Origin: Candidatus Nanopelagicales bacterium
Lineage (GTDB): Bacteria; Actinomycetota; Actinomycetes; S36-B12; JAWKJK01
Reading direction: 5' to 3'
DNA: 64,000 bases
NCBI GenBank assembly: GCA_041393815.1
Contig: JAWKJK010000003.1
Coordinates: 153,562 to 217,561 of the forward strand
Shown: in pieces, positions 3,594 to 33,114 of the stretch
Numbering within the stretch: the first letter of the stretch is position 1
Layout of the letters: each line of letters starts with the position of its first letter
Position numbers and translations under genes: made by a program
The notes under the pieces: generated by a model
Told to the model about the DNA's origin: nothing
The model's input: only the letters and a program-made list of their open reading frames with translations
Database searches by the model: none

Positions 3594-3680
3594 TGGTGTC
3601 CGAGGGGGGACTTGAACCCCCATGCCCCTAAGGGCACTAGCACCTCAAGCTAGCGCGTCTGCCAATTCCGCCACCCGGAC
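3594..3680 (-). tRNA. tRNA-Leu (anticodon GAG), CCA encoded
   Basis: Reverse complement GTCCGGGTGGCGGAATTGGCAGACGCGCTAGCTTGAGGTGCTAGTGCCCTTAGGGGCATGGGGGTTCAAGTCCCCTCGGACACCA. 7-bp acceptor stem, anticodon stem CTAGC/GCTAG with loop TTGAGGT, long variable arm, GGTTCAAGTCC T-arm. Confidence 0.9.
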
Positions 3681-19217: not shown

Positions 19218-20849
19218 GTGACCGTCGTCCCGCTCGCCCAGACCGACGCCTGGCAGGCCCTCGTCGCTCGGCGCGACGAGGTCGGCGCGACCCACCTGCG
19301 CGACCTGTTCGCCGCCGACCCGGGGCGCGCCGACCGCTACGTCGCGGAGGGCGCCGGCTGGACGCTGGACTACTCCAAGCAGCGGGTCGACGAGGAGACG
19401 CTGCGGCTGCTGCTGGCCCTGGCCGAGGCGCGCGGGGTCGCCGAGCGGCGCGACGCGATGTTCCGCGGAGATCGGATCAACGTGACCGAGGACCGGTCTG
19501 TGCTGCACATCGCGCTGCGGCTGCCGCGCGACGCGACCCTGGTCGTCGACGGCGTCGACGTCGTGGCCGAGGTGCACGCGGTGCTGGACCAGATGTCCTC
19601 GTTCGCCGACCGGGTGCGGTCGGGGGAGTGGACCGGCTTCACCGGCCGCCCGATCCGCAACGTCGTCAACATCGGGATCGGCGGATCCGACCTCGGCCCG
19701 GTGATGGCCTACCAGGCGCTGCGGCACTACTCCCGCCGGGACATGACGTTCCGCTTCGTCTCCAACGTCGACGGCACCGACTTCGCCGAGGCCACCCACG
19801 ACCTCGACCCGGCGGAGACGCTGTTCATCGTCGCCTCCAAGACGTTCACGACGCTGGAGACGATGACGAACGCCCGCACCGCGCGGGACTGGCTGCTCCA
19901 GGCGCTCGGGGACGAGTCCGCCGTCGCCAAGCACTTCGTCGCCGTGTCCACCAACGCCGGCGAGGTCGCGAAGTTCGGCATCGACACCGCGAACATGTTC
20001 GTCTTCTGGGACTGGGTCGGCGGTCGCTACTCGATGGACTCCTCGATCGGGCTGTCCACGATGATCGCGATCGGCCCGGACGGCTTCCGGGACCTGCTGG
20101 CCGGCTTCCACGCCATGGACGAGCACTTCCGGACCACCCCGTTCGAGGCGAACCTGCCGGTCCTGATGGGCCTGCTGTCGGTGTGGAACCGCGATCTGCT
20201 CGGCTGCGCGACGACCGCCGTGCTTCCGTACGACCAGTACCTGGTGCGCTTCCCGGCATACCTGCAGCAGCTCACGATGGAGAGCAACGGCAAGCACGTG
20301 ACGCTCGACGGCGGACCGGTGGGCGTTGACACCGGCGCCATCTTCTGGGGCGAGCCCGGCACCAACGGGCAGCACTCCTTCTACCAGCTCATCCACCAGG
20401 GCACGTCCGTCGTCCCGTGCGACTTCCTGCTGTTCGGCCGGCCGCTGAACCCGCTGGGGGAGCACCACGACCTGCTCGCCGCCAACGCGCTGGCGCAGGC
20501 GTCGGTGATGGCGTTCGGCCGCACCGCCGAGGAGGTCGCCGCCGACGGGACTGCACCGGACCTGGTGCCGCACAAGGTGATGGCCGGCAACCGGCCCTCG
20601 AACTTCCTGATGGCCGAGGTGCTCACGCCGTTCGCCCTGGGCGCCGCGGTCGCGCTGTACGAGCACAGCGTGTTCGTGCAGGGCGCCGTGTGGGGCATCG
20701 ACTCCTTCGACCAGTGGGGCGTGGAGCTGGGGAAGAAGGTGGCGATGGGGATCGTGCCTGCCCTCACCGGCACCGGCGAGGGTGAGGCGACCGACGCCTC
20801 GACCGCGGCCCTGGTCCGCCGCTACCGGGGCATCCGCGCCGGCGGCTGA
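19218..20849 (+). CDS. pgi: glucose-6-phosphate isomerase
   Basis: [43 protein letters not shown] and [14 protein letters not shown] motifs. GTG 19218 is preceded by GGAGGA. An in-frame GTG at 19143 (GTGA overlap with the zwf stop) is the alternative. Confidence 0.9.
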
Positions 20850-20909
20850 CCGGCGACGGCCGGCAGGGGCCCGGTCTCTCCCGCGGCCCCGGCCCGTGCT
20901 TTCCAGCGC

Positions 20910-20965
20910 GAGTGGAGGGTTGTGGTGGAAGTCGATCGATCGACTTCCACCACAACCCTCCACTC
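20910..20965. repeat. perfect 56-bp palindrome (28-nt arms, no loop)
   Basis: GAGTGGAGGGTTGTGGTGGAAGTCGATC directly followed by its reverse complement. Lies between pgi and the DUF1707 gene. Confidence 0.9.
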
Positions 20966-21018
20966 GGCGACAACGCGCCACGCGGCGACGGGGTCGGGGG
21001 ACGCACTAGCCTGCAGGT

Positions 21019-21495
21019 GTGACCGATCCGTCCGAGCTGCGCGCGGGGGATGCCGACCGCGACCGCACCATCACCGTGCTCCGTGAGGCCTTCGCCGAGG
21101 GCCGGCTCACCGAGGCCGAGTTCGAGCAACGGATGTCCTCCGCGAGCTCGGCCCGCACGTTCGCCGACCTGCAGGCGCTCACGGCCGACCTGCCCGCCGC
21201 CGGCGGCGCCGCCCCTCAGCCGGCGGCCACCGCCCCGGTGCCGACACCGGCGAGCCAGGCACCGCCGCCCGCGCCGGACTACTACCGCGACCGCGACGTG
21301 CGTCGCTCCGACCGTGACCCGGTCAAGGCGATGTGGGCGTCCTGGGCTGGCGTCTCGCTGCTCATGGTGGTCATCTGGTTCGCCACCGGGATCACCAGCG
21401 ACCACGGGTTCAGCCTCAGTGGGTTCTGGCCGATCTGGGTCATCGCGCCGTGGGGCGCGGTCAACGTCATCGCGACCATCAACCGGCGGACCTAG
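21019..21495 (+). CDS. DUF1707 domain membrane protein
   Basis: LRAGDADRDRTITVLREAFAEGRLTEAEFEQRMSSA, then C-terminal TM segments. Confidence 0.75.
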   Translation: MTDPSELRAGDADRDRTITVLREAFAEGRLTEAEFEQRMSSASSARTFADLQALTADLPAAGGAAPQPAATAPVPTPASQAPPPAPDYYRDRDVRRSDRDPVKAMWASWAGVSLLMVVIWFATGITSDHGFSLSGFWPIWVIAPWGAVNVIATINRRT

Positions 21496-21536
21496 CAGCC
21501 CCGACCGCCCGGACCCCGACCGTCCGGCCGCGACAC

Positions 21537-21568
21537 GGCGCGGCGGGCGCCAGGACGCCCGCCGCGCC
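21537..21568. terminator. bidirectional hairpin between convergent genes
   Basis: GGCGCGGCGGGCG-CCAGGA-CGCCCGCCGCGCC. Confidence 0.45.
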
Positions 21569-21579
21569 GGCCTCGAGAC

Positions 21580-22950
21580 CTACTTCATCCGGAGCTGGTT
21601 GCAGGACAGCGCGCTGTAGTTGCCCGCCTTGTCGTACGAGCGCACGCAGAAGATGCCGCCGGTGTAGTTCCACGGCAGCTTGGCGCGGACGACGTAGACC
21701 TCGCCCCACTTCGACTCGGAGAAGTTCGTGGTGCCCTTGATCACGACCCGCGAGGCGCGGTTGCGGACGGTGATCTTCTCCTTGGTGATGCCGCTCTTCT
21801 CCCAGATCCGGTAGCGCAGCTTGGCGTAGCCACCGGGCTTGCCGAAGCTCACCAGCGCCTGCACCTTCGGCGCCGTCCGGTCCGGCACCACCGTCGGTGT
21901 CGACTGGGTCGGGGTGGGGGTGGACGTGGAGGGCGTCGGGCTGGCCGGCGTCGTGCCACCGGCGCCGAGCGGGACGCCGTACCCCGCCAGCCAGGAGGCG
22001 AAGGCCGACAGCCGGGTGTAGACGCCCGGGGTGTCGCCGGCGCAGCCCTGGCCGAAGCTGACCACGCCGACCAGGCGGGCGTCAGTGCCGGTGCCGTTGA
22101 CCAACGGGCCGCCGGAGTCGCCCTGGCAGGTGTCGACGATCTGCCCCGCAGAGTTCACTCCGCCTGCGCAGATCATCACCGTCGGGTTCGCGTCGTTGGG
22201 GCCGAGGCCCTGGAACGTGACGCCGTTGATCGTGTACGACTGCCCCTGGCCGCAGGAGCCGTAGGGGAACACCTGCAGGTCGGCCACCAGGTAGGAGCTG
22301 GGGAAGTCGTTGACCTGGAAGGCCCGGGTCCCCCAGCCCGCGGACGTCACGGGTGCTCCGGTGACGATCCGGGTCTGCGCCTCGGTCGGCGAGATGACCG
22401 TCATCGTGGGCACGCCGTCCAGCGGCGCGGCCAGCGTCAGCACGGCGACGTCATTGGTCGTCGTGGTCTCGTTGTACTGCGGGTAGACGTTGACCGTCGC
22501 GACCGGGACCACCTTGGCGGCCGGGTCGTTGAGGTCCTGGGCCGACGCGACCAGGATGCTCGCCGCCGGTGTCACGGCTCCCTCGTCCACCAGGCAGTGG
22601 GCAGCCGTCACGACGACCGTGCTCGTGACGAGCGTGCCGCCGCAGAACTGGGCCTGGTACAGCCCGTCGGTCTGGTAGGTCGACGCGTTGGCGAGCGCCA
22701 CCAGGAAGCCGAACTCACCGGGCACCGGGTCACGGCCGTGCACGATCCGCTGGTGCAGCCCGGTGCCGGAGCGCTCGGCCACCTTCGTCATCGGCGTGTC
22801 ACCGCGTGCCGTGGGCGTCGGCGCGGCACCCGTGGGGGCCGCGAGCACCAGTCCGGCCGCTCCGACCGCTACCGCGGAGGCGATCGCCACCGGGACGCGC
22901 ACCCGACGACCCTGAGCCGTTCCGAACCGACCACCGCCGTGCCGTCCCAT
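21580..22950 (-). CDS. secreted trypsin-like (S1) serine protease with a Pro/Thr linker and an extra C-terminal domain
   Basis: Signal peptide, then [15 protein letters not shown]...VTAAHC...NDVAVLTL...[10 protein letters not shown]. Start at the internal ATG (MGRHGGG). Confidence 0.85.
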
Positions 22951-23279
22951 GTCGGCCCCCTCACGGGCCACCGCCCGCGCGCGGTACGCGCGGCGCCGGG
23001 CCCACAGGACCATCGTGGACCCCCGCGAGGGTCGAAGGGAGGGCCAACCGGCCGATTCCTCCGTGGCTCCCGGAGGAATCGGCCCGGCGCAGGCCTTCCC
23101 CGTGTGCGCCCGTCAGCCACTGTCGGGGCCGCGGCGGCGCAGGTGGCGCTCGTACCAGCGACCGAGGAGCGCGGTCGTGGGTGGGCCCTTTGGCCTCTGG
23201 CTCGCGTCGGGGGGACGGCCACAGCCTGGGACTGCCGCGCTACTCCAGAGTGCACCTCCGGGATTGAGTCGATGCCGTC

Positions 23280-23852
23280 ATGAAGCCCGGACGCCGTCTG
23301 CTTGTCCCCGTCGTCGTGGCGGTCCTGGCGGTGGGCGGCTGCACCACGGCTGGCTCCGGCCCCGAGGCTACGGGACCGCCACCGCCACCCACGCCGAGCG
23401 GATGGGGGTACGGGCCGACGACCGCACCCGTCTCATCCGTGGCGGAGGCACACTTCGGCGGTGCGTCGGTCCGGGCGGACCGGACGTGGCCGGAGCCCTC
23501 CACGGCCATGGACCTCGTGGAGTTCCGCTTCTTCCGGGGTACGCCGGGGTGCCACGTGCGCTACGTCGAACCTCCCGTGACCGACGAGGTGTCGGGTGAC
23601 CCCGTCGAAGTCCAGGGGGCCGCATTCCTCCAGGTCAGCTGCCACCCGGTGACCTCCCTCATCCACGGCACCGACAACGTCGACCGCTACCGCAGCCCCG
23701 ACACCAAGAACGTCACCGAGCTCGCCGGGACCGGGTACGACGGATCGACGCTCACCTGGACGATCGGCCTCCGGCGCCGGTCTCCCTTCGGAGTCGCTGT
23801 GATCATGGACGGCGGGTCACCCTCGGGGGTCAGTGTCGGAATCGTGCAGTAG
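23280..23852 (+). CDS. hypothetical lipoprotein
   Basis: MKPGRRLLVPVVVAVLAVGGC has a lipobox-like signal. Confidence 0.6.
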   Translation: MKPGRRLLVPVVVAVLAVGGCTTAGSGPEATGPPPPPTPSGWGYGPTTAPVSSVAEAHFGGASVRADRTWPEPSTAMDLVEFRFFRGTPGCHVRYVEPPVTDEVSGDPVEVQGAAFLQVSCHPVTSLIHGTDNVDRYRSPDTKNVTELAGTGYDGSTLTWTIGLRRRSPFGVAVIMDGGSPSGVSVGIVQ

Positions 23853-26049: not shown

Positions 26050-29000
26050 ATGGCTGACCACCCCTCGCTCCTCGACGCCCTGCGCCAGCGCGTCGTCGTT
26101 GCCGACGGCGCGATGGGCACGATGCTGCAGGCCGCCGACCTCACCCTCGACGACTTCGAGGGGCACGAGGGCTGCAACGAGATCCTCAACGTCACCCGCC
26201 CCGACGTCGTCGCCGGCGTGCACGAGGCCTACCTCGCGGTCGGGGTCGACTGCGTCGAGACCAACACGTTCGGCGCCAACCTGGCCAACCTGGGCGAGTA
26301 CGGCATCTCCTCGCGCATCTTCGAACTGGCCGAGGCGGGTGCGCGGGTCGCCCACGAAGTCACCCGAGCCTGGTCCACCCCGGACCGGCCGCGCTGGGTG
26401 CTGGGGTCGGTCGGCCCGGGCACGAAGCTGCCCACGCTGGGCCACGTGACGTACGCCGAGCTCCGCGACGCCTACGAGCAGCAGGTCGCCGGCATGGTGT
26501 CTGGCGGGGTGGACGGCATCCTGATCGAGACGGCGCAGGACCTGCTGCAGGCCAAGGCCGCGATCATCGGGGCCCGGCGGGCGCTGGCCCGGGCCGGCGT
26601 GTCGCTGCCCGTGCTCGCCCAGGTGACGGTCGAGACCACCGGCACGATGCTGCTGGGATCGGAGATCGGCGCGGCGCTGACGGCGCTTGAGCCGCTGGGC
26701 ATCGACGTGATCGGCCTCAACTGCGCGACCGGTCCGACGGAGATGAGCGAGCACCTGCGCCACCTGTCACGGCACGGACGGATCTCGTTGTCCTGCATGC
26801 CCAATGCCGGTCTGCCCGTCCTCACCGCCGACGGCGCGCACTACCCGCTCACCCCGGACGAGCTGGCGGCCGCCCACGACACGTTCACCCGCGAGTACGG
26901 CCTCGGCCTGGTCGGCGGCTGCTGCGGCACCACGCCGGAGCACCTGCGCGCCGTGGTCGAGCGGGTCGGCGGGCGCGAGGTGGCGCCTCGGCGGCCGCGT
27001 CCGGAGCCGGGTGCGGCGTCGCTGTACCAGTCGGTCCCGTTCCGCCAGGACACGGCGTACCTGTCGATCGGCGAGAGGACCAACGCCAACGGCTCCAAGG
27101 CGTTCCGCGAGGCCATGCTGGCTGGGCGGTGGGACGACTGCGTGGAGATCGCGCGCGACCAGATCCGCGACGGGGCCCATCTGCTGGACCTGTGCGTGGA
27201 CTACGTCGGGCGCGACGGTGTCGCCGACATGCGCGAGATCGCCGGGCGGCTGGCGACCGCGTCGACGCTGCCGCTGGTGCTGGACTCCACCGAGCCCGAG
27301 GTGCTGCAAGCCGGCCTCGAGATGCTCGGCGGCCGACCGGTCATCAACTCGGTCAACTACGAGGACGGAGACGGCCCCGGGTCCCGCATCTCGCGGATCA
27401 TGCCGCTGGTCGTCGAACACGGCGCCGCCGTCGTCGCCCTCACCATCGACGAGGAGGGGCAGGCGCGCACGGCGGAGTGGAAGGTGCGGGTCGCCGACCG
27501 GCTCATCAGGGACCTGCGGGACCGCTGGGGGATGCGGGTCGAGGACGTCATCGTCGACTGCCTGACGTTCCCGATCGCGACCGGACAGGAGGAGACCCGC
27601 CGGGACGCGATCGAGACCCTCGAGGCCATCCGCGAGGTCAAGCGGCTGTACCCGCAGGTGCAGACGACACTGGGCCTGTCGAACGTGTCGTTCGGGCTAA
27701 ACCCGGCCGCGCGCCAGGTGCTCAACTCGGTGTTCCTGCACGAGGCCGTGCAGGCAGGTCTGGACTCCGCGATCGTGCATGCGTCGAAGATCCTGCCGAT
27801 GTCGCGCATCCCGGATGAGCAGCGGCAGGTGGCGCTCGACCTGGTCTACGACCGTCGTCGCTACGACGAGTCCGGCGACGTGGCCTACGACCCGCTGCAG
27901 CGGTTCCTGGAGCTGTTCGAGGGCGTCGAGACCACGTCGCTGCGGCAGAGCAAGGCCCAGGAGCTGGCCGCGCTGCCGCTGTTCGAGCGGCTGGAGCGCC
28001 GGATCATCGACGGGGAGCGGCAGGGGCTGGAGGCCGACCTCGACGCGGCGTTGGCCGAGCGGCCCGCGCTGGAGATCGTCAACGGGACGCTGCTGGCCGG
28101 CATGAAGGTCGTCGGCGACCTGTTCGGCGCGGGTGAGATGCAGCTGCCGTTCGTGCTGCAGAGCGCCGAGGTGATGAAGGCGGCGGTCGCCCACCTCGAG
28201 CCGCACATGGAGCGCACCGACGAGTCGGGCAAGGGCACCATCGTCCTGGCCACGGTCAAGGGCGACGTGCACGACATCGGCAAGAACCTGGTCGACATCA
28301 TCCTGAGCAACAACGGCTACACGGTCGTCAACATCGGCATCAAGCAGCCGGTCAGCGCGATCCTCGAGGCCGCGGAGAGTAGCTCCGCCGACGCCATCGG
28401 CATGTCCGGGCTGCTGGTCAAGAGCACCGTGGTGATGAAGGAGAACCTCGAGGAGATGAACGCCCGCGGCGTCGCTGCGCGCTGGCCGGTGCTCCTCGGC
28501 GGCGCCGCGCTCACCCGGGCCTACGTCGAGCAGGACCTGGCCGCGATGTACGAGGGCGACGTGCGCTACGCCCGCGACGCGTTCGAGGGCCTTCGGCTGA
28601 TGGACGCGGTGATGGCGGTCAAGCGCGGCGAGCCGGGAGCGGCGCTGCCGGAGCGCCGGGAGCGCCGGGTCCGGCCGGGCGCGGGCCGCGGGCCGGTGAC
28701 CACTCCGCTCGACGAGTTGCCGGCGCGCTCCGACGTCGCCGTGGACGTGCCGGTCCCCGTACCCCCGTTCTGGGGCTCCCGCGTGGTCAAGGGACTCAAG
28801 CTCGCCGACTACGTGCGCTACCTGGACGAGAGGGCCACGTTCCTGGGTCAGTGGGGGCTGAAGTCCGCACGCGGCGACGGGCCGTCGTACGACGAGCTGG
28901 TCGAGACCGAGGGTCGGCCGCGGCTGCGGTACTGGCTGGACCGGGTGCAGACCGAGGCGATCCTCGAGCCGGCTGTCGTCTACGGGTACTTCCCCTGCTA

Positions 29001-29559
29001 CTCCGAGGGCGACGACCTGGTCGTGCTGTGGCACGAGGGCTCGCGGGCGGGGGAGGAGCGGGCCCGGTTCACCTTCCCGCGGCAGCGCCGTGGCCGGCAC
29101 CTGTGCCTGGCGGACTTCTTCCGGCCGAAGGAGTCCGGGCAGACCGACGTGGTCGCGTTCCACGTGGTCACCATGGGCAACGCGGTCTCGGAGGCGACGG
29201 CGAAGCTGTTCGAGTCCGACTCCTACCGGGACTACCTGGAGCTGCACGGGCTGTCGGTCCAGCTGACCGAGGCGCTGGCGGAGTACTGGCACGCGCGGGT
29301 CCGCTCGGAGCTGGGGCTGGACGCCGACGACGACCCCGACATGGAGAAGCTCATCGGCAAGCAGGGCTACCGGGGGTCGCGCTACTCCTTCGGCTACCCC
29401 GCCTGCCCGGACGTGGAGCAGCAGGCGCTCCTGGTGGACCTGCTGGACCCTGGGCGGATCGGGGTGGAGTTGTCCGAGGAGTTCCAGCTGCACCCGGAGC
29501 AGTCGACCAGCGCCCTGATCGTCCACCACCCCGAGGCCAAGTACTTCAACGCTACGTAG
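26050..29559 (+). CDS. metH: cobalamin-dependent methionine synthase
   Basis: 1169 aa with Hcy, pterin, B12 (GDVHDIGKN) and AdoMet reactivation domains all readable. Confidence 0.95.
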   Translation: MADHPSLLDALRQRVVVADGAMGTMLQAADLTLDDFEGHEGCNEILNVTRPDVVAGVHEAYLAVGVDCVETNTFGANLANLGEYGISSRIFELAEAGARVAHEVTRAWSTPDRPRWVLGSVGPGTKLPTLGHVTYAELRDAYEQQVAGMVSGGVDGILIETAQDLLQAKAAIIGARRALARAGVSLPVLAQVTVETTGTMLLGSEIGAALTALEPLGIDVIGLNCATGPTEMSEHLRHLSRHGRISLSCMPNAGLPVLTADGAHYPLTPDELAAAHDTFTREYGLGLVGGCCGTTPEHLRAVVERVGGREVAPRRPRPEPGAASLYQSVPFRQDTAYLSIGERTNANGSKAFREAMLAGRWDDCVEIARDQIRDGAHLLDLCVDYVGRDGVADMREIAGRLATASTLPLVLDSTEPEVLQAGLEMLGGRPVINSVNYEDGDGPGSRISRIMPLVVEHGAAVVALTIDEEGQARTAEWKVRVADRLIRDLRDRWGMRVEDVIVDCLTFPIATGQEETRRDAIETLEAIREVKRLYPQVQTTLGLSNVSFGLNPAARQVLNSVFLHEAVQAGLDSAIVHASKILPMSRIPDEQRQVALDLVYDRRRYDESGDVAYDPLQRFLELFEGVETTSLRQSKAQELAALPLFERLERRIIDGERQGLEADLDAALAERPALEIVNGTLLAGMKVVGDLFGAGEMQLPFVLQSAEVMKAAVAHLEPHMERTDESGKGTIVLATVKGDVHDIGKNLVDIILSNNGYTVVNIGIKQPVSAILEAAESSSADAIGMSGLLVKSTVVMKENLEEMNARGVAARWPVLLGGAALTRAYVEQDLAAMYEGDVRYARDAFEGLRLMDAVMAVKRGEPGAALPERRERRVRPGAGRGPVTTPLDELPARSDVAVDVPVPVPPFWGSRVVKGLKLADYVRYLDERATFLGQWGLKSARGDGPSYDELVETEGRPRLRYWLDRVQTEAILEPAVVYGYFPCYSEGDDLVVLWHEGSRAGEERARFTFPRQRRGRHLCLADFFRPKESGQTDVVAFHVVTMGNAVSEATAKLFESDSYRDYLELHGLSVQLTEALAEYWHARVRSELGLDADDDPDMEKLIGKQGYRGSRYSFGYPACPDVEQQALLVDLLDPGRIGVELSEEFQLHPEQSTSALIVHHPEAKYFNAT

Positions 29560-29630
29560 GGCAGCACGAGCCGTTGCGGCACATCACTATCCCTGGTGGG
29601 CATCCTTTCGCCCTTGGCGGGTAGGTCACC

Positions 29631-30043
29631 ATGCGGCCAGTCACTCTCGTCCCGATCGCCCTGACCGTCCTGGTGTGCGCGGCGTGCGGCGGAACACCCT
29701 CGTCGCAGCCGGCGAGCGCGCAGGCATCCCTGCCGGCGGGTTCGTCGGGTTCCCCGACAACGGAGCATCCGACGTGCAGGTGAATCTGGACCAGGCCAAG
29801 TACGAGATGGACGTGCTGGTGGCCAAGGCCCCGGAGTGCGCCCCGAAGGCCGTGCAGGCGCTCGAGACGCTGGCGGGTGCGGTTGACGAGCTGCTCGTCA
29901 CGTTCCAGCTCGGTGAGAACCCCGCGGTCGTGGCGGCAGACAAGGCGGCGTTGAACGAGGTGCGCGGCCGGGGTATCGACGCGTGGAAGATCATGAAGAT
30001 CAACCCGGTCGGCTGGGAGGGGATCTTCGCGAACGCGCGGTAG
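29631..30043 (+). pseudogene. possible frameshifted lipoprotein gene
   Basis: ATG 29631 encodes MRPVTLVPIALTVLVCAACGGTPSSQPASAQ... and stops at about 29771. The body (ASDVQVNLDQAKYEM...IFANAR) continues in another frame. An in-frame GTG at 29774 is the alternative start for a short cytoplasmic protein. Confidence 0.35.
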
Positions 30044-30085
30044 TTCCGGTCCGGCACGTGACCGGTGCCCACGGTACGCAGAAGC

Positions 30086-30119
30086 GCGCAGTTGATCTTC
30101 CGCGGAAGATCAACTGCGC
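30086..30119. repeat. perfect 34-bp palindrome (family 4, copy 1)
   Basis: GCGCAGTTGATCTTCCG followed by CGGAAGATCAACTGCGC. Confidence 0.9.
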
Positions 30120-30213
30120 TCCCGGGCATGAACTCGGGCCCTTCGAGGCTGCCCTCATGAGGGGGGCCGCGGATACCATGTCGAGGTCTTCGCCGGTAGG
30201 GGGGAGCACGGCC

Positions 30214-31611
30214 ATGGCCCTTCGACTCGTCGGTCATCGACTCGCTGTGGCGGGCCTCGGGATCGCTCTGCTCCTTCCCGCCCAGCTACCAGTGACCGTG
30301 GCTGCGGTCCCTGGTCCGGACGGAGCGGCGTCGGCCGTCGGGCAGTTCGCACTCGTCGATCCGATCGCCACGGCCGTCGACGGCGGCGGCGGAACCGTGG
30401 TCGCCGGCGGATTCCGGGGAACGGCGGTCTTCGGGGACACCACGCTGGTGTCGACCGCCCGTCAGGAGATCTTCGTTGCGAGGCTTGCTCCGTCAGGCAC
30501 CTGGTCGTGGGCGGTGCGCGTCGCCGGCGAGGCGGCCGACACGGCCGACGTACGCGCGGTCGCGGTGGACAAGGGGGGCAACGTCTACGTGACCGGCCGA
30601 TTCTCGGGCCGGCAGGCTTTCGGGTCGACGCTTCTGACGAGCACCCGCTCGGGTGGCGTGAGCGCGATGTACGTGGCCAAGCTGTCGCCGCAGAGAACGT
30701 GGTTGTGGGCACGGAAGCAGCCGGGCGGCTACGCCGGTGACGGGGGGGTGTCCCTCGCGCTCGACCGGCTCGGTCGTCCGGTCGTCGTCGGTGAGATCGG
30801 CGGGCGGCTGATGGTGGCACGGCTGTCCACCAAGGGGAAGTGGCGCTCCCGGGTTTGGGTCCCCGGAGCCGCCGACGGAGCGCTGGCGCTGGACCGACGG
30901 GACAACGTGTACCTGACGGGGAGCTTCTCGGGTCGGCTGAAGTTCGGTCGCACCACGCTCGTCGCAGTCCAGTCGGACCCTGAGCGGTCGGCCCGCGACG
31001 TGTTCGTCGCGAAACTCAGACCGGCGGGGAGTTGGGCGTGGGCCGTGCGAGGAGGGGGCACGTCGGACGAGCAGGCTACGGCGATCGCTCGGGACCCGAA
31101 AGGCAACCTCCTCGTCACCGGAGTCCTCTGGGGCCCATCGGCCAGATTCGGCACGTCGAACGTGACCAGCCAGGGTCTGAGCGACGTCTTCGTCGCCAAG
31201 CTGGACTCGAGGGGTCGATGGCGGTGGGCGGTCGCAGGCGGTGGCGCGGATTACGACGCGCCGCAGTCCATCGCGGTCGCGGCTGCGGGCTGGGCCGTGG
31301 TGACGGGCTACGTACACGGGACGGCGACCTTCGGATCCAGCACCGTGACGGGGCTGGAGTCGAACGGCGCCGGTGCCTTCGTCGCCCGCGTGGGTCCCAC
31401 GGGAGCCTGGGCCTGGGCCACGACGGCGGGCCCTCCGGAGGAGCCCAACTTCGGTTGGTCGGTTCAGGTCACCAGTTCGGGAGTGGTCGAGGTCACCGGC
31501 GGGTGGCCGGGGTCGTTGGACGTCGGGCCGACCACGTCCGCATCGGGGTGGTTGTGGGTCTCCCGACTTTCCCCCTCGGGGACGTGGATTCCGGTGGTGG
31601 CACCGTCCTGA
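30214..31611 (+). CDS. secreted beta-propeller repeat (SBBP-like) protein
   Basis: Signal MALRLVGHRLAVAGLGIALLL. Recurring units: GGNVYVTGRFSGRQAFGSTLL, DNVYLTGSFSGRLKFGRTTL, KGNLLVTGVLWGPSARFGTS, WAVVTGYVHGTATFGSST. GGGGGAG SD before ATG 30214. Confidence 0.75.
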   Translation: MALRLVGHRLAVAGLGIALLLPAQLPVTVAAVPGPDGAASAVGQFALVDPIATAVDGGGGTVVAGGFRGTAVFGDTTLVSTARQEIFVARLAPSGTWSWAVRVAGEAADTADVRAVAVDKGGNVYVTGRFSGRQAFGSTLLTSTRSGGVSAMYVAKLSPQRTWLWARKQPGGYAGDGGVSLALDRLGRPVVVGEIGGRLMVARLSTKGKWRSRVWVPGAADGALALDRRDNVYLTGSFSGRLKFGRTTLVAVQSDPERSARDVFVAKLRPAGSWAWAVRGGGTSDEQATAIARDPKGNLLVTGVLWGPSARFGTSNVTSQGLSDVFVAKLDSRGRWRWAVAGGGADYDAPQSIAVAAAGWAVVTGYVHGTATFGSSTVTGLESNGAGAFVARVGPTGAWAWATTAGPPEEPNFGWSVQVTSSGVVEVTGGWPGSLDVGPTTSASGWLWVSRLSPSGTWIPVVAPS

Positions 31612-31649
31612 GGAGGCAGACCACAGACGGCCGCTTGTGGTGCCACTGG

Positions 31650-31935
31650 CCTGCTACTGGACGGCGGGCAGGTCGTGCTGTGTGGCACGAGGGCTCGCGG
31701 GCGGGGCAGGAACGGGCCCGGTCACCTTCCCGCCGCAGCGTCGGGGGCAGGCACCTGTGCCTGGCGGACTTCTTCCGGCCGAAGGAGTCCGGGCAGACCA
31801 ACGTGGTCGCGTTCCACGTGGTCACCATGGGCAACCCGGTCTCGGAGGCGACGGCGAAGCTGTTCGAGTCCGACTCGTACCGGGACTACCTGGAGCTGCA
31901 CGGGCTGTCGGTGCAGCTGACCGAGGCGCTGGCGG
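31650..31935 (+). pseudogene. degenerate duplicate of an internal metH fragment (matches 28994-29281)
   Basis: Direct nucleotide alignment. The 5' third has a 2-nt insertion, a 1-nt deletion and clustered substitutions. The last ~190 nt differ at only 4 positions by eye. Translation: WHEGSRAGQERAR..HLCLADFFRPKESGQTNVVAFHVVTMGNPVSEATAKLFESDSYRDYLELHGLSVQLTEALA. Confidence 0.85.
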
Positions 31936-31984
31936 TTCGCGAACGCGCGGTAGACCCGGGCCGGCTGCCGGCTGCTCGCGCATA

Positions 31985-32013
31985 CAGTTGATCTTCCGCG
32001 GAAGAACAACTTG
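31985..32013. repeat. degenerate copy of the family-4 palindrome
   Basis: CAGTTGATCTTCCGCGGAAGAACAACTTG. Preceded at 31936-31953 by TTCGCGAACGCGCGGTAG, which is identical to 30026-30043. Confidence 0.8.
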
Positions 32014-32017
32014 TCCC

Positions 32018-32065
32018 TTGTGGTGCCGGTTGCGCGCGCTGTAGCGCGCGCAACCGGCACCACAA
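32018..32065. repeat. 22-bp-stem hairpin
   Basis: TTGTGGTGCCGGTTGCGCGCGC-TGTA-GCGCGCGCAACCGGCACCACAA. Confidence 0.85.
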
Positions 32066-32097
32066 AGGGGGTTGAATCAGTGGGTGGGAGGTGCGCG

Positions 32098-32427
32098 ATG
32101 GACTCCGACCTGAAGGCACTGCCGAGCTGGTTCCAGATGAGCGAGGGCGACCGTGCGCAGGCGGCCCGCCACGTGTACGAGCTGCACCAGCACGGCACCG
32201 GGCAGCACCACGGGGAGCCGCCGGTCCCGGACGTCCGATACCGGGACGATCCCGCGTTGGCGGCACTGGACGCCGGGAGCGCGTCCCGGCACGCGATGCA
32301 CGTGACGGACGGCGGCTGGGAGGAGCTGTGCTGGCGGGAGACCGAGGAGGAGGCCGCCCGGCTGTGCATGCTGGCCCAGGCCGCGGACGGGCTCTCGCCG
32401 GGTGCGCCCCCCAGCGCGCTCGGATAG
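32098..32427 (+). CDS. hypothetical protein
   Basis: ATG with a GGGAGG SD 7 nt upstream: MDSDLKALPSWFQMSEGDRAQAARHVYELHQHG. No recognisable family. Confidence 0.45.
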   Translation: MDSDLKALPSWFQMSEGDRAQAARHVYELHQHGTGQHHGEPPVPDVRYRDDPALAALDAGSASRHAMHVTDGGWEELCWRETEEEAARLCMLAQAADGLSPGAPPSALG

Positions 32428-32451
32428 GGGTTCTGCGGTAGGAACATCCCC

Positions 32452-33114
32452 GTGGACGCGCTGCTGTTCGACATGGACGGCACCCTGATCGACTCCGAGC
32501 ACCTGTGGCTCGAGGCCGAGATCGCCACGATGGCGTCACTCGGTTCCGCGTGGACCGACGAGGACCAGGCCTACTCCCTCGGCGGCCCGATGGAGCGCGT
32601 GATCGCGTACATGGTCGAGAAGGCCGGCGGCGGCCACGACCACGGTGAGGTGACCGCCACGCTGCTCGGGCACATGGAGCGGCTGCTGCGGTCCGAGCAC
32701 ATCCCGTGGCGCCCCGGGGCGCGGGAGCTGCTGCAGGAGGCCATCGACGCCGATCTGCCCAGGGCGCTGGTCTCCGCGTCGTGGCGCACCCTGGTCGACG
32801 CGATGCACGAGGAGGTCCTGCACGAGGTCGGCCGCAACGCCTTCCCGGTCACCGTGGCCGGGGACGAGGTGAAGGTCGGCAAGCCCGACCCGGCGCCGTA
32901 CCTGCTCGCAGCCCGCCGCCTCGGCGTCGATCCGCGCCGCTGCGTGGTTCTGGAGGACTCGCCCACCGGCGTCACCGCGGGACGGGCCTCCGGCGCCCTC
33001 GTCGTCGCGGTGCCGCACATGGTGCCGATCGAGCCGGGGGAGCGGTGCGTCGTCGTCCCCACCCTGGAGGGCGTCACGCTGGCGGACCTCGAGCGGTGGC
33101 TCGCCGAGGCGTAG
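32452..33114 (+). CDS. HAD-IA family hydrolase
   Basis: LLFDMDGTLIDSE motif I and the VLEDSPTGV motif. Confidence 0.85.
   Translation: MDALLFDMDGTLIDSEHLWLEAEIATMASLGSAWTDEDQAYSLGGPMERVIAYMVEKAGGGHDHGEVTATLLGHMERLLRSEHIPWRPGARELLQEAIDADLPRALVSASWRTLVDAMHEEVLHEVGRNAFPVTVAGDEVKVGKPDPAPYLLAARRLGVDPRRCVVLEDSPTGVTAGRASGALVVAVPHMVPIEPGERCVVVPTLEGVTLADLERWLAEA

Follow-up and report, generated by a model that had tools for sequence, protein, structure and literature searches.

Probable patchwork scar of local copies, including a decayed metH fragment, in a lineage-specific insertion of a Candidatus Nanopelagicales bacterium

A 64,000-nucleotide stretch of Candidatus Nanopelagicales DNA (assembly GCA_041393815.1, contig JAWKJK010000003.1, positions 153,562 to 217,561 of the forward strand) was analysed as a whole and is called the window below; all positions are counted from its first letter, and its source is a metagenome-assembled genome (MAG). 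Downstream of metH, the gene for cobalamin-dependent methionine synthase, the window carries a broken second copy of an internal metH segment that runs directly into copies of other nearby sequences. This 383-bp block (31645-32027) consists of same-strand copies of local sequence, with the sources of its metH, gene-end and palindrome pieces lying within 3 kb upstream. Its ingredients are 294 nt of the resident metH, the last 30 nt of a small lipoprotein gene remnant, the core of a palindrome (P1) and two partial copies of the left arm of a second palindrome (pal2), apparently strung together by non-homologous joins where an SBBP beta-propeller repeat gene borders pal2. The feature is most probably (probability about 0.7) a non-functional patchwork scar of local copies in a lineage-specific 2.9-kb insertion, with copy-and-rejoin at pal2 as its favoured origin. 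Objects of this kind are ordinary: a small accessory island, itself in partial decay, contains a rearrangement scar of patchwork type, and part of that scar is a fragmentary pseudogene.

The first-pass annotation had described a metH copy, an 18-nt junction with the end of the next gene and a palindrome copy, and alignment and BLAST recover all three where it placed them. Positions 28994-29281 of metH align with 31650-31935 at 90.6% identity over 308 columns (BLAST, E = 1.3e-116). The copy is therefore real, but its start had been set at 31650, and the homology probably begins at 31645 (ACT..), the equivalent of metH 28988. The contrast between a nearly identical last ~190 nt and an indel-rich 5' third also holds: 29092-29281 and 31746-31935 differ at 5 of 190 nt (97% identity), whereas 21 columns differ within the first 104 nt, indels of -4, +2, -1 and +1 among them (P = 9e-7 by Fisher's test on this difference in divergence). 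Relatives were taken to be the best 80 listed loci from a scan of species-representative genomes with the C-terminal 330 aa of MetH, the closest of which is 79-81% identical over this part; the source species is not one of them. The last 190 nt of the fragment show 97% identity with the resident metH, and against these relatives the figure never exceeds 82.5%. The fragment also carries the lineage-specific residues of the resident gene. Because the fragment is closer to the resident metH than to any listed relative, its origin is local. It can be read only across three frames, since the indels break the frame, and its Pfam Met_synt_B12 match is confined to profile positions 94-166 of 273 (73/273). 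Judged by its sequence, the fragment is best regarded as a decayed local copy of the resident metH, neither a foreign allele nor a gene. Proximity to the resident gene, a disrupted frame and an incomplete domain are the marks of a duplication-derived pseudogene, and the internal, frameshifted fragment differs in nothing of substance from the incomplete pseudogenes flagged by annotation. This agrees with its earlier description as a dead duplicate of metH fused to a duplicated gene end and a palindrome core.

From 31936 onwards the fragment is followed by 18 nt (TTCGCGAACGCGCGGTAG) identical to 30026-30043, the end of the small open reading frame (ORF) after metH, and the match continues to 27 of 30 nt through 31965. 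The core of P1 then recurs with 26 of 27 positions matching, although the outer GC arms of P1 are not in the copy. When up to 3 mismatches were allowed, a pattern search of the 64 kb for P1 gave no sites beyond these two (0 expected, none in shuffled sequences). Self-BLAST of 29500-32500 against the whole window revealed the repeats as first described and no other significant ones. However, the layout is not that of a block X (gene end plus palindrome) and its decayed counterpart X'. The sequence between the gene-end piece and the P1 core of X' had been called a diverged spacer, but its better counterpart is the inner part of pal2's left arm, with which 31966-31981 (TGCCGGCTGCTCGCGC) agrees at 14 of 16 positions (P ~3e-4), against only 10 of 16 for the original X spacer. 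Because its spacer matches the pal2 arm better than the X spacer, X' is not simply a degenerate copy of X.

A second piece of the same arm lies at the other end of the block. The exact 11-mer CTTGTGGTGCC occurs at 31634-31644 (R1) and 32017-32027 (R2) and thus directly flanks the whole block. The probability of an 11-mer common to both flanks is ~4e-4; over the island as a whole, 6 repeats of this length were found and 6.1 are predicted by chance. The two pal2-arm pieces overlap in register by TGCC, so that they jointly form a second arm copy matching at 21 of 23 positions, which is interrupted by the metH fragment and 30 nt of the small-gene end. Downstream of the SBBP gene the order is therefore arm positions 1-11, metH piece, gene-end piece, arm positions 8-23, P1 core and the full hairpin.

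The block lies in an insertion that separates two genes adjacent in relatives. A HAD-family hydrolase gene is next after metH in 65 of the 80 listed loci, with a gap of 6-356 nt in 62 and never more than 1,221 nt, so that none is as long as the one in the window. The stop codon of metH and the start codon of HAD share bases in the closest listed relatives, which read ATGA or GTGA at this point. The related locus L012 is collinear with 24.0-41.6 kb of the window, and the sole discontinuity lies between the metH end and the HAD start, where the offset between the two changes from 20,566 to 23,444, a gain of 2,878 bp. A tblastn search found no relatives of the small ORF, the SBBP gene or the third gene of the island, p109, in the 80 listed loci. 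Because metH and HAD are adjacent in relatives and L012 is collinear except for these 2,878 bp, 29560-32451 is a lineage-specific insertion (~2.88 kb) into a conserved gene pair, with synteny kept on both sides. The interval comparison proposed by the first-pass annotation thus bears out its scarred island downstream of metH. The gene pair split by the insertion was probably co-translated.

The stop/start overlap of the relatives is lost in the window (29557-29580 and 32440-32460, compared with L012 8985-9030). In L012 the opening codons of HAD look like the window bases that come next after the stop of metH (GCAGCAC..GCC), which suggests that the island inserted a few codons into the ancestral HAD gene.

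Decay of the metH copy is clustered. The 5' third holds 13 substitutions, 5 of which raise the complementarity of an inverted repeat (31662-31673 with 31724-31735) from 6/12 to 11/12, and only 6 of 3000 random mutation sets do as well. Clusters of substitutions that create inverted repeats are a described signature of short template-switch mutations (PMC5453318, PMC8794818), and the cluster found here is of this quasi-palindrome kind, although it was spotted in hindsight and yields no significant fold. The clustered changes are thus partly non-random. The copy would have decayed after its formation through frameshifts and these hairpin-creating substitutions. Over its 3' 190 nt, near-identity to metH would have been kept or regained, for which gene conversion with the resident gene is the simplest account. 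As a separate observation, 6 of the 13 substitutions create three copies of GGGCAGG about 40 nt apart (31666, 31704 and 31745); P is ~0.05 under a G-biased random model, and 7 of the 13 substitutions are towards G. The NCBI locus-tag series skips 10500 between the SBBP gene (10495) and p109 (10505), which suggests a non-protein feature there. These tags and that of the small ORF (R2737_10490) belong to a contig of 589,524 bp. Positions of all features are collected in Table 1.

Table 1. Features of the metH-HAD region of the window
Feature	Positions	Strand	Basis
metH, cobalamin-dependent methionine synthase, 1169 aa, intact	26050-29559	+	Pfam S-methyl_trans, Pterin_bind, B12-binding_2, B12-binding and Met_synt_B12 (all five)
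Block A, source segment in the metH reactivation domain (~aa 980-1077)	28988-29281	+	alignment
Lineage-specific island	29560-32451	+	L012 collinearity, 80 listed loci
Small lipoprotein gene remnant, R2737_10490	29631-30043	+	comparison of three homologues
Xa, 18-nt end of the small ORF with 12 nt beyond it, copied at 31936-31965	30026-30055	+	27/30, first 18 exact
P1, perfect 34-bp palindrome	30086-30119	+	sequence, RNA fold
SBBP beta-propeller repeat gene, 465 aa; NCBI version 517 aa, R2737_10495	30214-31611	+	Pfam SBBP
R1, CTTGTGGTGCC, repeat of left-arm positions 1-11 of pal2, directly before A'	31634-31644	+	exact repeat
A', frameshifted pseudogene copy of metH 28988-29281	31645-31935	+	BLAST, partial Met_synt_B12
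X'a, copy of the small-ORF end	31936-31965	+	27/30, exact over 18 nt
Partial copy of the pal2 left arm	31966-31981	+	14/16 to 32024-32039
P1', copy of the P1 core	31985-32011	+	26/27
pal2, hairpin with 26-nt arms, left arm including R2 (32017-32027)	32015-32068	+	fold
p109, small conserved gene, 109 aa, R2737_10505	32098-32427	+	homologue in L093
HAD-family hydrolase, ancestral downstream partner of metH, GTG start here	32452-33114	+	domain and neighbourhood comparison

Both fork stalling with template switching and tandem duplication are known processes (PMC2583991, PMC11111574). Repeated copy-and-rejoin at pal2, set off by fork stalling or break repair at its 25-bp GC stem, is favoured because it accounts for every piece, including the progressively deeper arm copies. 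The pal2 arm would have been copied to 11 nt, then to position 23 and then fully, and sequence from upstream would have been interleaved between these attempts. The data show the copies themselves, their local origin, the island and the decay, whereas the order of events and the joining mechanism are our inference. With fork stalling with template switching and microhomology-mediated break-induced replication (PMC2583991) the block has in common that several short local templates form a patchwork in one place, here beside a strong hairpin, and the inverted-repeat-creating cluster is shared with short template-switch mutations. However, the junctions here lack the 2-5 nt of microhomology usually reported for template switching, and simultaneity of the events cannot be shown. 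One candidate mediator of the join between metH and the small gene, the microhomology ACGCGCGG, was ruled out, since in the copy it is preceded by 8 nt that come from the small gene and not from metH.

Several points weigh against this origin. The pal2-arm matches are short and were spotted after the fact. Read directly from the sequence, junction microhomology never exceeds 0-1 nt, which is atypical for microhomology-mediated template switching. The copy differs from metH in 20% of columns over its first 104 nt and in 2.6% over its last 190, and such uneven divergence requires extra assumptions, either multi-base events in clusters or gene conversion. Among the relatives, none turned up with an arrangement intermediate in the supposed order of events. 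Finally, 31780-32049, including the junction 31935/31936, was recovered in no independent assembly in four attempts.

The strongest alternative is a plain tandem duplication of 28988-31644 (2.66 kb), which would have doubled a unit running from the 3' part of metH through the small gene, P1 and the SBBP gene into arm positions 1-11 of pal2. Two deletions would then have followed, one of 744 bp that took out the redundant metH end together with the small gene, and one of ~1.5 kb that took out the extra SBBP gene. All copies are direct, in the original order and just downstream of their sources, and the 11-mer pair R1/R2 is the expected trace of the right-hand duplication boundary. In bacteria, tandem duplications are documented around horizontally acquired genes (PMC11111574), and the join-point scars and gene remnants that segmental or tandem duplications and later deletions leave in bacterial genomes resemble the block in having a direct partial copy nearby, novel blunt junctions, a redundant copy that decays beside an intact original, and horizontally acquired DNA. 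Unlike such scars, the block comes without second copies of the intervening DNA and has pieces of hairpin arm interleaved. Self-BLAST found only 28988-29281, 30026-30055 and the P1 core to recur, with no second SBBP gene or metH end, which is not the picture of a simple tandem duplication. One duplication with one internal deletion, as proposed by the first-pass annotation, does not suffice, for the layout would also need the loss of a second SBBP gene and the pal2-arm copies would stay unexplained. Even the fuller scheme requires at least three events with blunt joins, offers no explanation for the match of the X' spacer to the pal2 arm over the X spacer, and has no intermediate on record. 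Taken as a whole account of the block it is possible but rather doubtful; as a joining mechanism, tandem duplication with two deletions is nearly as likely as copy-and-rejoin.

Retention for a function would be surprising. The block could be imagined as a 3' untranslated region, as an alternative-pairing element upstream of p109, or as the source of a small peptide or RNA. In favour of this, 31966-31981 is 88% complementary to the pal2 right arm at 32044-32059, so that it could compete with the left arm in an alternative pairing, the region 31612-32075 as a whole folds with z = -5.9, and the 190-nt tract is well preserved. However, that fold is mostly due to pal2, which by itself reaches -58.3 kcal/mol (z = -9.8). 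The 5' region of the metH copy, examined as a hairpin, folds no better than shuffled sequences, and neither does the P1' region (z = -0.03), whereas the RNA around P1 (30044-30135) reaches -46.6 kcal/mol (z = -5.1). An Rfam scan of 25-35 kb returned no family at gathering score and only sub-threshold chance matches on pal2, and a scan for promoter and terminator consensus sequences gave no matches. The reading frame is broken. The 190-nt tract holds only 5 differences, and the four scored sites (29146, 29182, 29223 and 29259) divide into two non-synonymous and two synonymous, so that selection cannot be shown. Nothing points to a function of the scar.

Site-specific insertion of a small SBBP element, with X and X' as its att-like repeats and the metH fragment brought in by an earlier imprecise excision, is a quite unlikely alternative to copy-and-rejoin. 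The SBBP gene does lie between the two repeat blocks, as first described; direct repeats that include a gene 3' end (the exact 18-nt core) and a palindrome bracket it together with the metH fragment, as in att-flanked islands, cis-mobilisable elements and integron cassettes, and the gene has no close relative in other lineages. Unlike in these systems, the repeats here are interrupted and degenerate, and they lie inside the island, not at its borders at 29560 and 32451. The only tRNA gene of the 64-kb window is far off (3594-3680), and the island is not inserted in a tRNA or tmRNA gene. The flanks in 24-41.6 kb are collinear core genes with no sign of a recombinase or integrase beside the island, although no search aimed at recombinases was made; likewise, no intI turned up in the region collinear with L012, and a dedicated search for it was not made either. 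By inspection, P1 reads GTTGATC ... GATCAAC and misfits the RYYYAAC/GTTRRRY cores of attC sites. P1 occurs only twice in 64 kb, its second copy is degenerate and does not fold, the G+C content of the SBBP gene equals that of its surroundings, and the pal2-arm copies are left unexplained. The called genes of the island are the lipoprotein remnant, the SBBP gene and p109, and the SBBP protein matches only the SBBP repeat family. No terminal inverted repeats link 31645 and 32016, so the block lacks the ends of a miniature inverted-repeat transposable element or insertion sequence, which would combine such repeats with a target-site duplication; an 11-nt flanking direct repeat is present. It is a more remote idea still that this actinobacterial lineage has a small cassette system that lacks its own integrase and is mobilised in trans, recombining at the gene-end core with a P1-type palindrome, with SBBP as cargo, X and X' as att-like sites and the metH fragment as host DNA from imprecise excision.

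A mis-join or collapse during assembly is very improbable as the source of the second copy. The window comes from a MAG, and the palindromes P1 and pal2 break short-read contigs or fold them back; one such product, the 3354-nt Logan contig L096, holds two inverted SBBP copies joined through P1 and is a fold-back assembly artefact of this perfect palindrome. However, Logan contigs from several independent runs (DRR438452, DRR438460, DRR438461, DRR438469 and SRR36351797; contig L100 reported in 9 samples) are 100% identical to the window over 30086-31779. They reproduce the SBBP gene and, in L096 and L098-L101, the left junction between it and the fragment, including the diverged 5' third, which is impossible to obtain from metH reads. 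All these contigs end 30 nt into a stretch of 50 nt that is the same in metH, which is where a graph with k=31 should branch, and L091 and L092 begin at the corresponding metH position, 29096. At the first two variable sites L092 has the variants of the fragment. Short-read assemblies therefore independently support the left junction and the fragment variants. The right junction is unconfirmed. Contigs from its far side begin inside pal2, neither the right arm of pal2 nor the junction 31935/31936 had a match in scans of JGI metagenomes (0 each), and exact-protein look-ups across it (a 103-aa ORF from 31680 and a 35-aa partial from 31884) found nothing on record.

Equally improbable is the recombinational capture of the metH fragment from a related organism, which the first-pass annotation had offered and which the far greater divergence of the 5' third would suit, but which is disfavoured by the identity to the resident gene over the last 190 nt and by the divergent part itself: it alters the EGDDL motif common to all listed relatives and adds frameshifts, which is decay and not an allele, so that a foreign-allele origin of this part is ruled out.

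The contig of run SRR36351797 (L098) covers 29478-31779, and its sole difference from the window is at 601-620 of the contig, where the left arm of P1 lacks 10 nt (GCAGTTGATC, window 30088-30097); the other 2.3 kb are identical. This loss is either a polymorphism due to palindrome instability or an assembler shortcut.

The small gene whose end was duplicated is itself broken; the first-pass annotation had recognised the duplication of its end and called it a small gene. Three full-length homologues (L090, L094 and L095) are continuous lipoprotein ORFs of ~177 aa, 67-77% identical and in unrelated genomic contexts. Relative to them, the remnant has a frameshifting internal deletion of 124 nt near 29730, which separates a signal-peptide frame (29631-29783) from the C-terminal domain in another frame (29675-30043, annotated as 122 aa). 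Neither the full-length homologue P0122 nor p109 has a Pfam match, and the remnant's own ORF has none in NCBIfam. metH, by comparison, is intact, and its protein is 69-81% identical to those of the listed relatives.

The 465-aa SBBP protein scores 35.6 bits against the Pfam SBBP family (cut-off 20.5), and its LipL53-type match in NCBIfam is far under the cut-off. It is predicted to be secreted from a reading of its N-terminus. Matches at 100% identity or in the same 90% cluster are confined to the MAG and the Logan runs, and the next best ones are 36-40% identical and come from other phyla. Across 30200-31800, which covers the SBBP gene and the scar, GC skew is markedly positive (0.10-0.17) and above that of most flanking genes, with the same total G+C.

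The p109 gene lies ~30 nt downstream of pal2. A relative's scaffold, L093 (ENA ZHEN15-1_SAMN22350761_METAG-scaffold_258685), 77% identical in nucleotides, holds a 75% identical homologue between a conserved pal2 and the HAD start. The differences are biased to the third codon position, and p109 is accordingly taken, from this pattern, to be a real gene. The outer stem of pal2 and the following GGTTGAATC are conserved in L093 (1-45); the inner stem and loop differ. Because the order of pal2, p109 and HAD is kept in L093, the right-hand portion of the island must be older than the divergence of the two lineages.

The scar has little importance beyond this genome. It does illustrate cleanly, in a natural genome, the assembly and later decay of an accessory locus, with foreign genes placed in a conserved gene pair, one of them already broken, and a patchwork of local copies beside a strong hairpin. 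In annotation, 31645-31935 should count as a fragment of a pseudogene and 29631-30043 as a lipoprotein gene that is disrupted. In assembly, two palindromes together with a 190-nt nearly identical tract systematically break short-read graphs or produce chimeras. If the serial-stalling reading is true, the block would be a small bacterial record of template-switch repair at a hairpin.

Among the listed relatives, three public MAG records titled 'Bifidobacterium breve' (L013, L041 and L065) carry the metH-HAD locus. By their MetH C-terminus they rank among Nanopelagicales and Planktophila MAGs, and the record titles look wrong.

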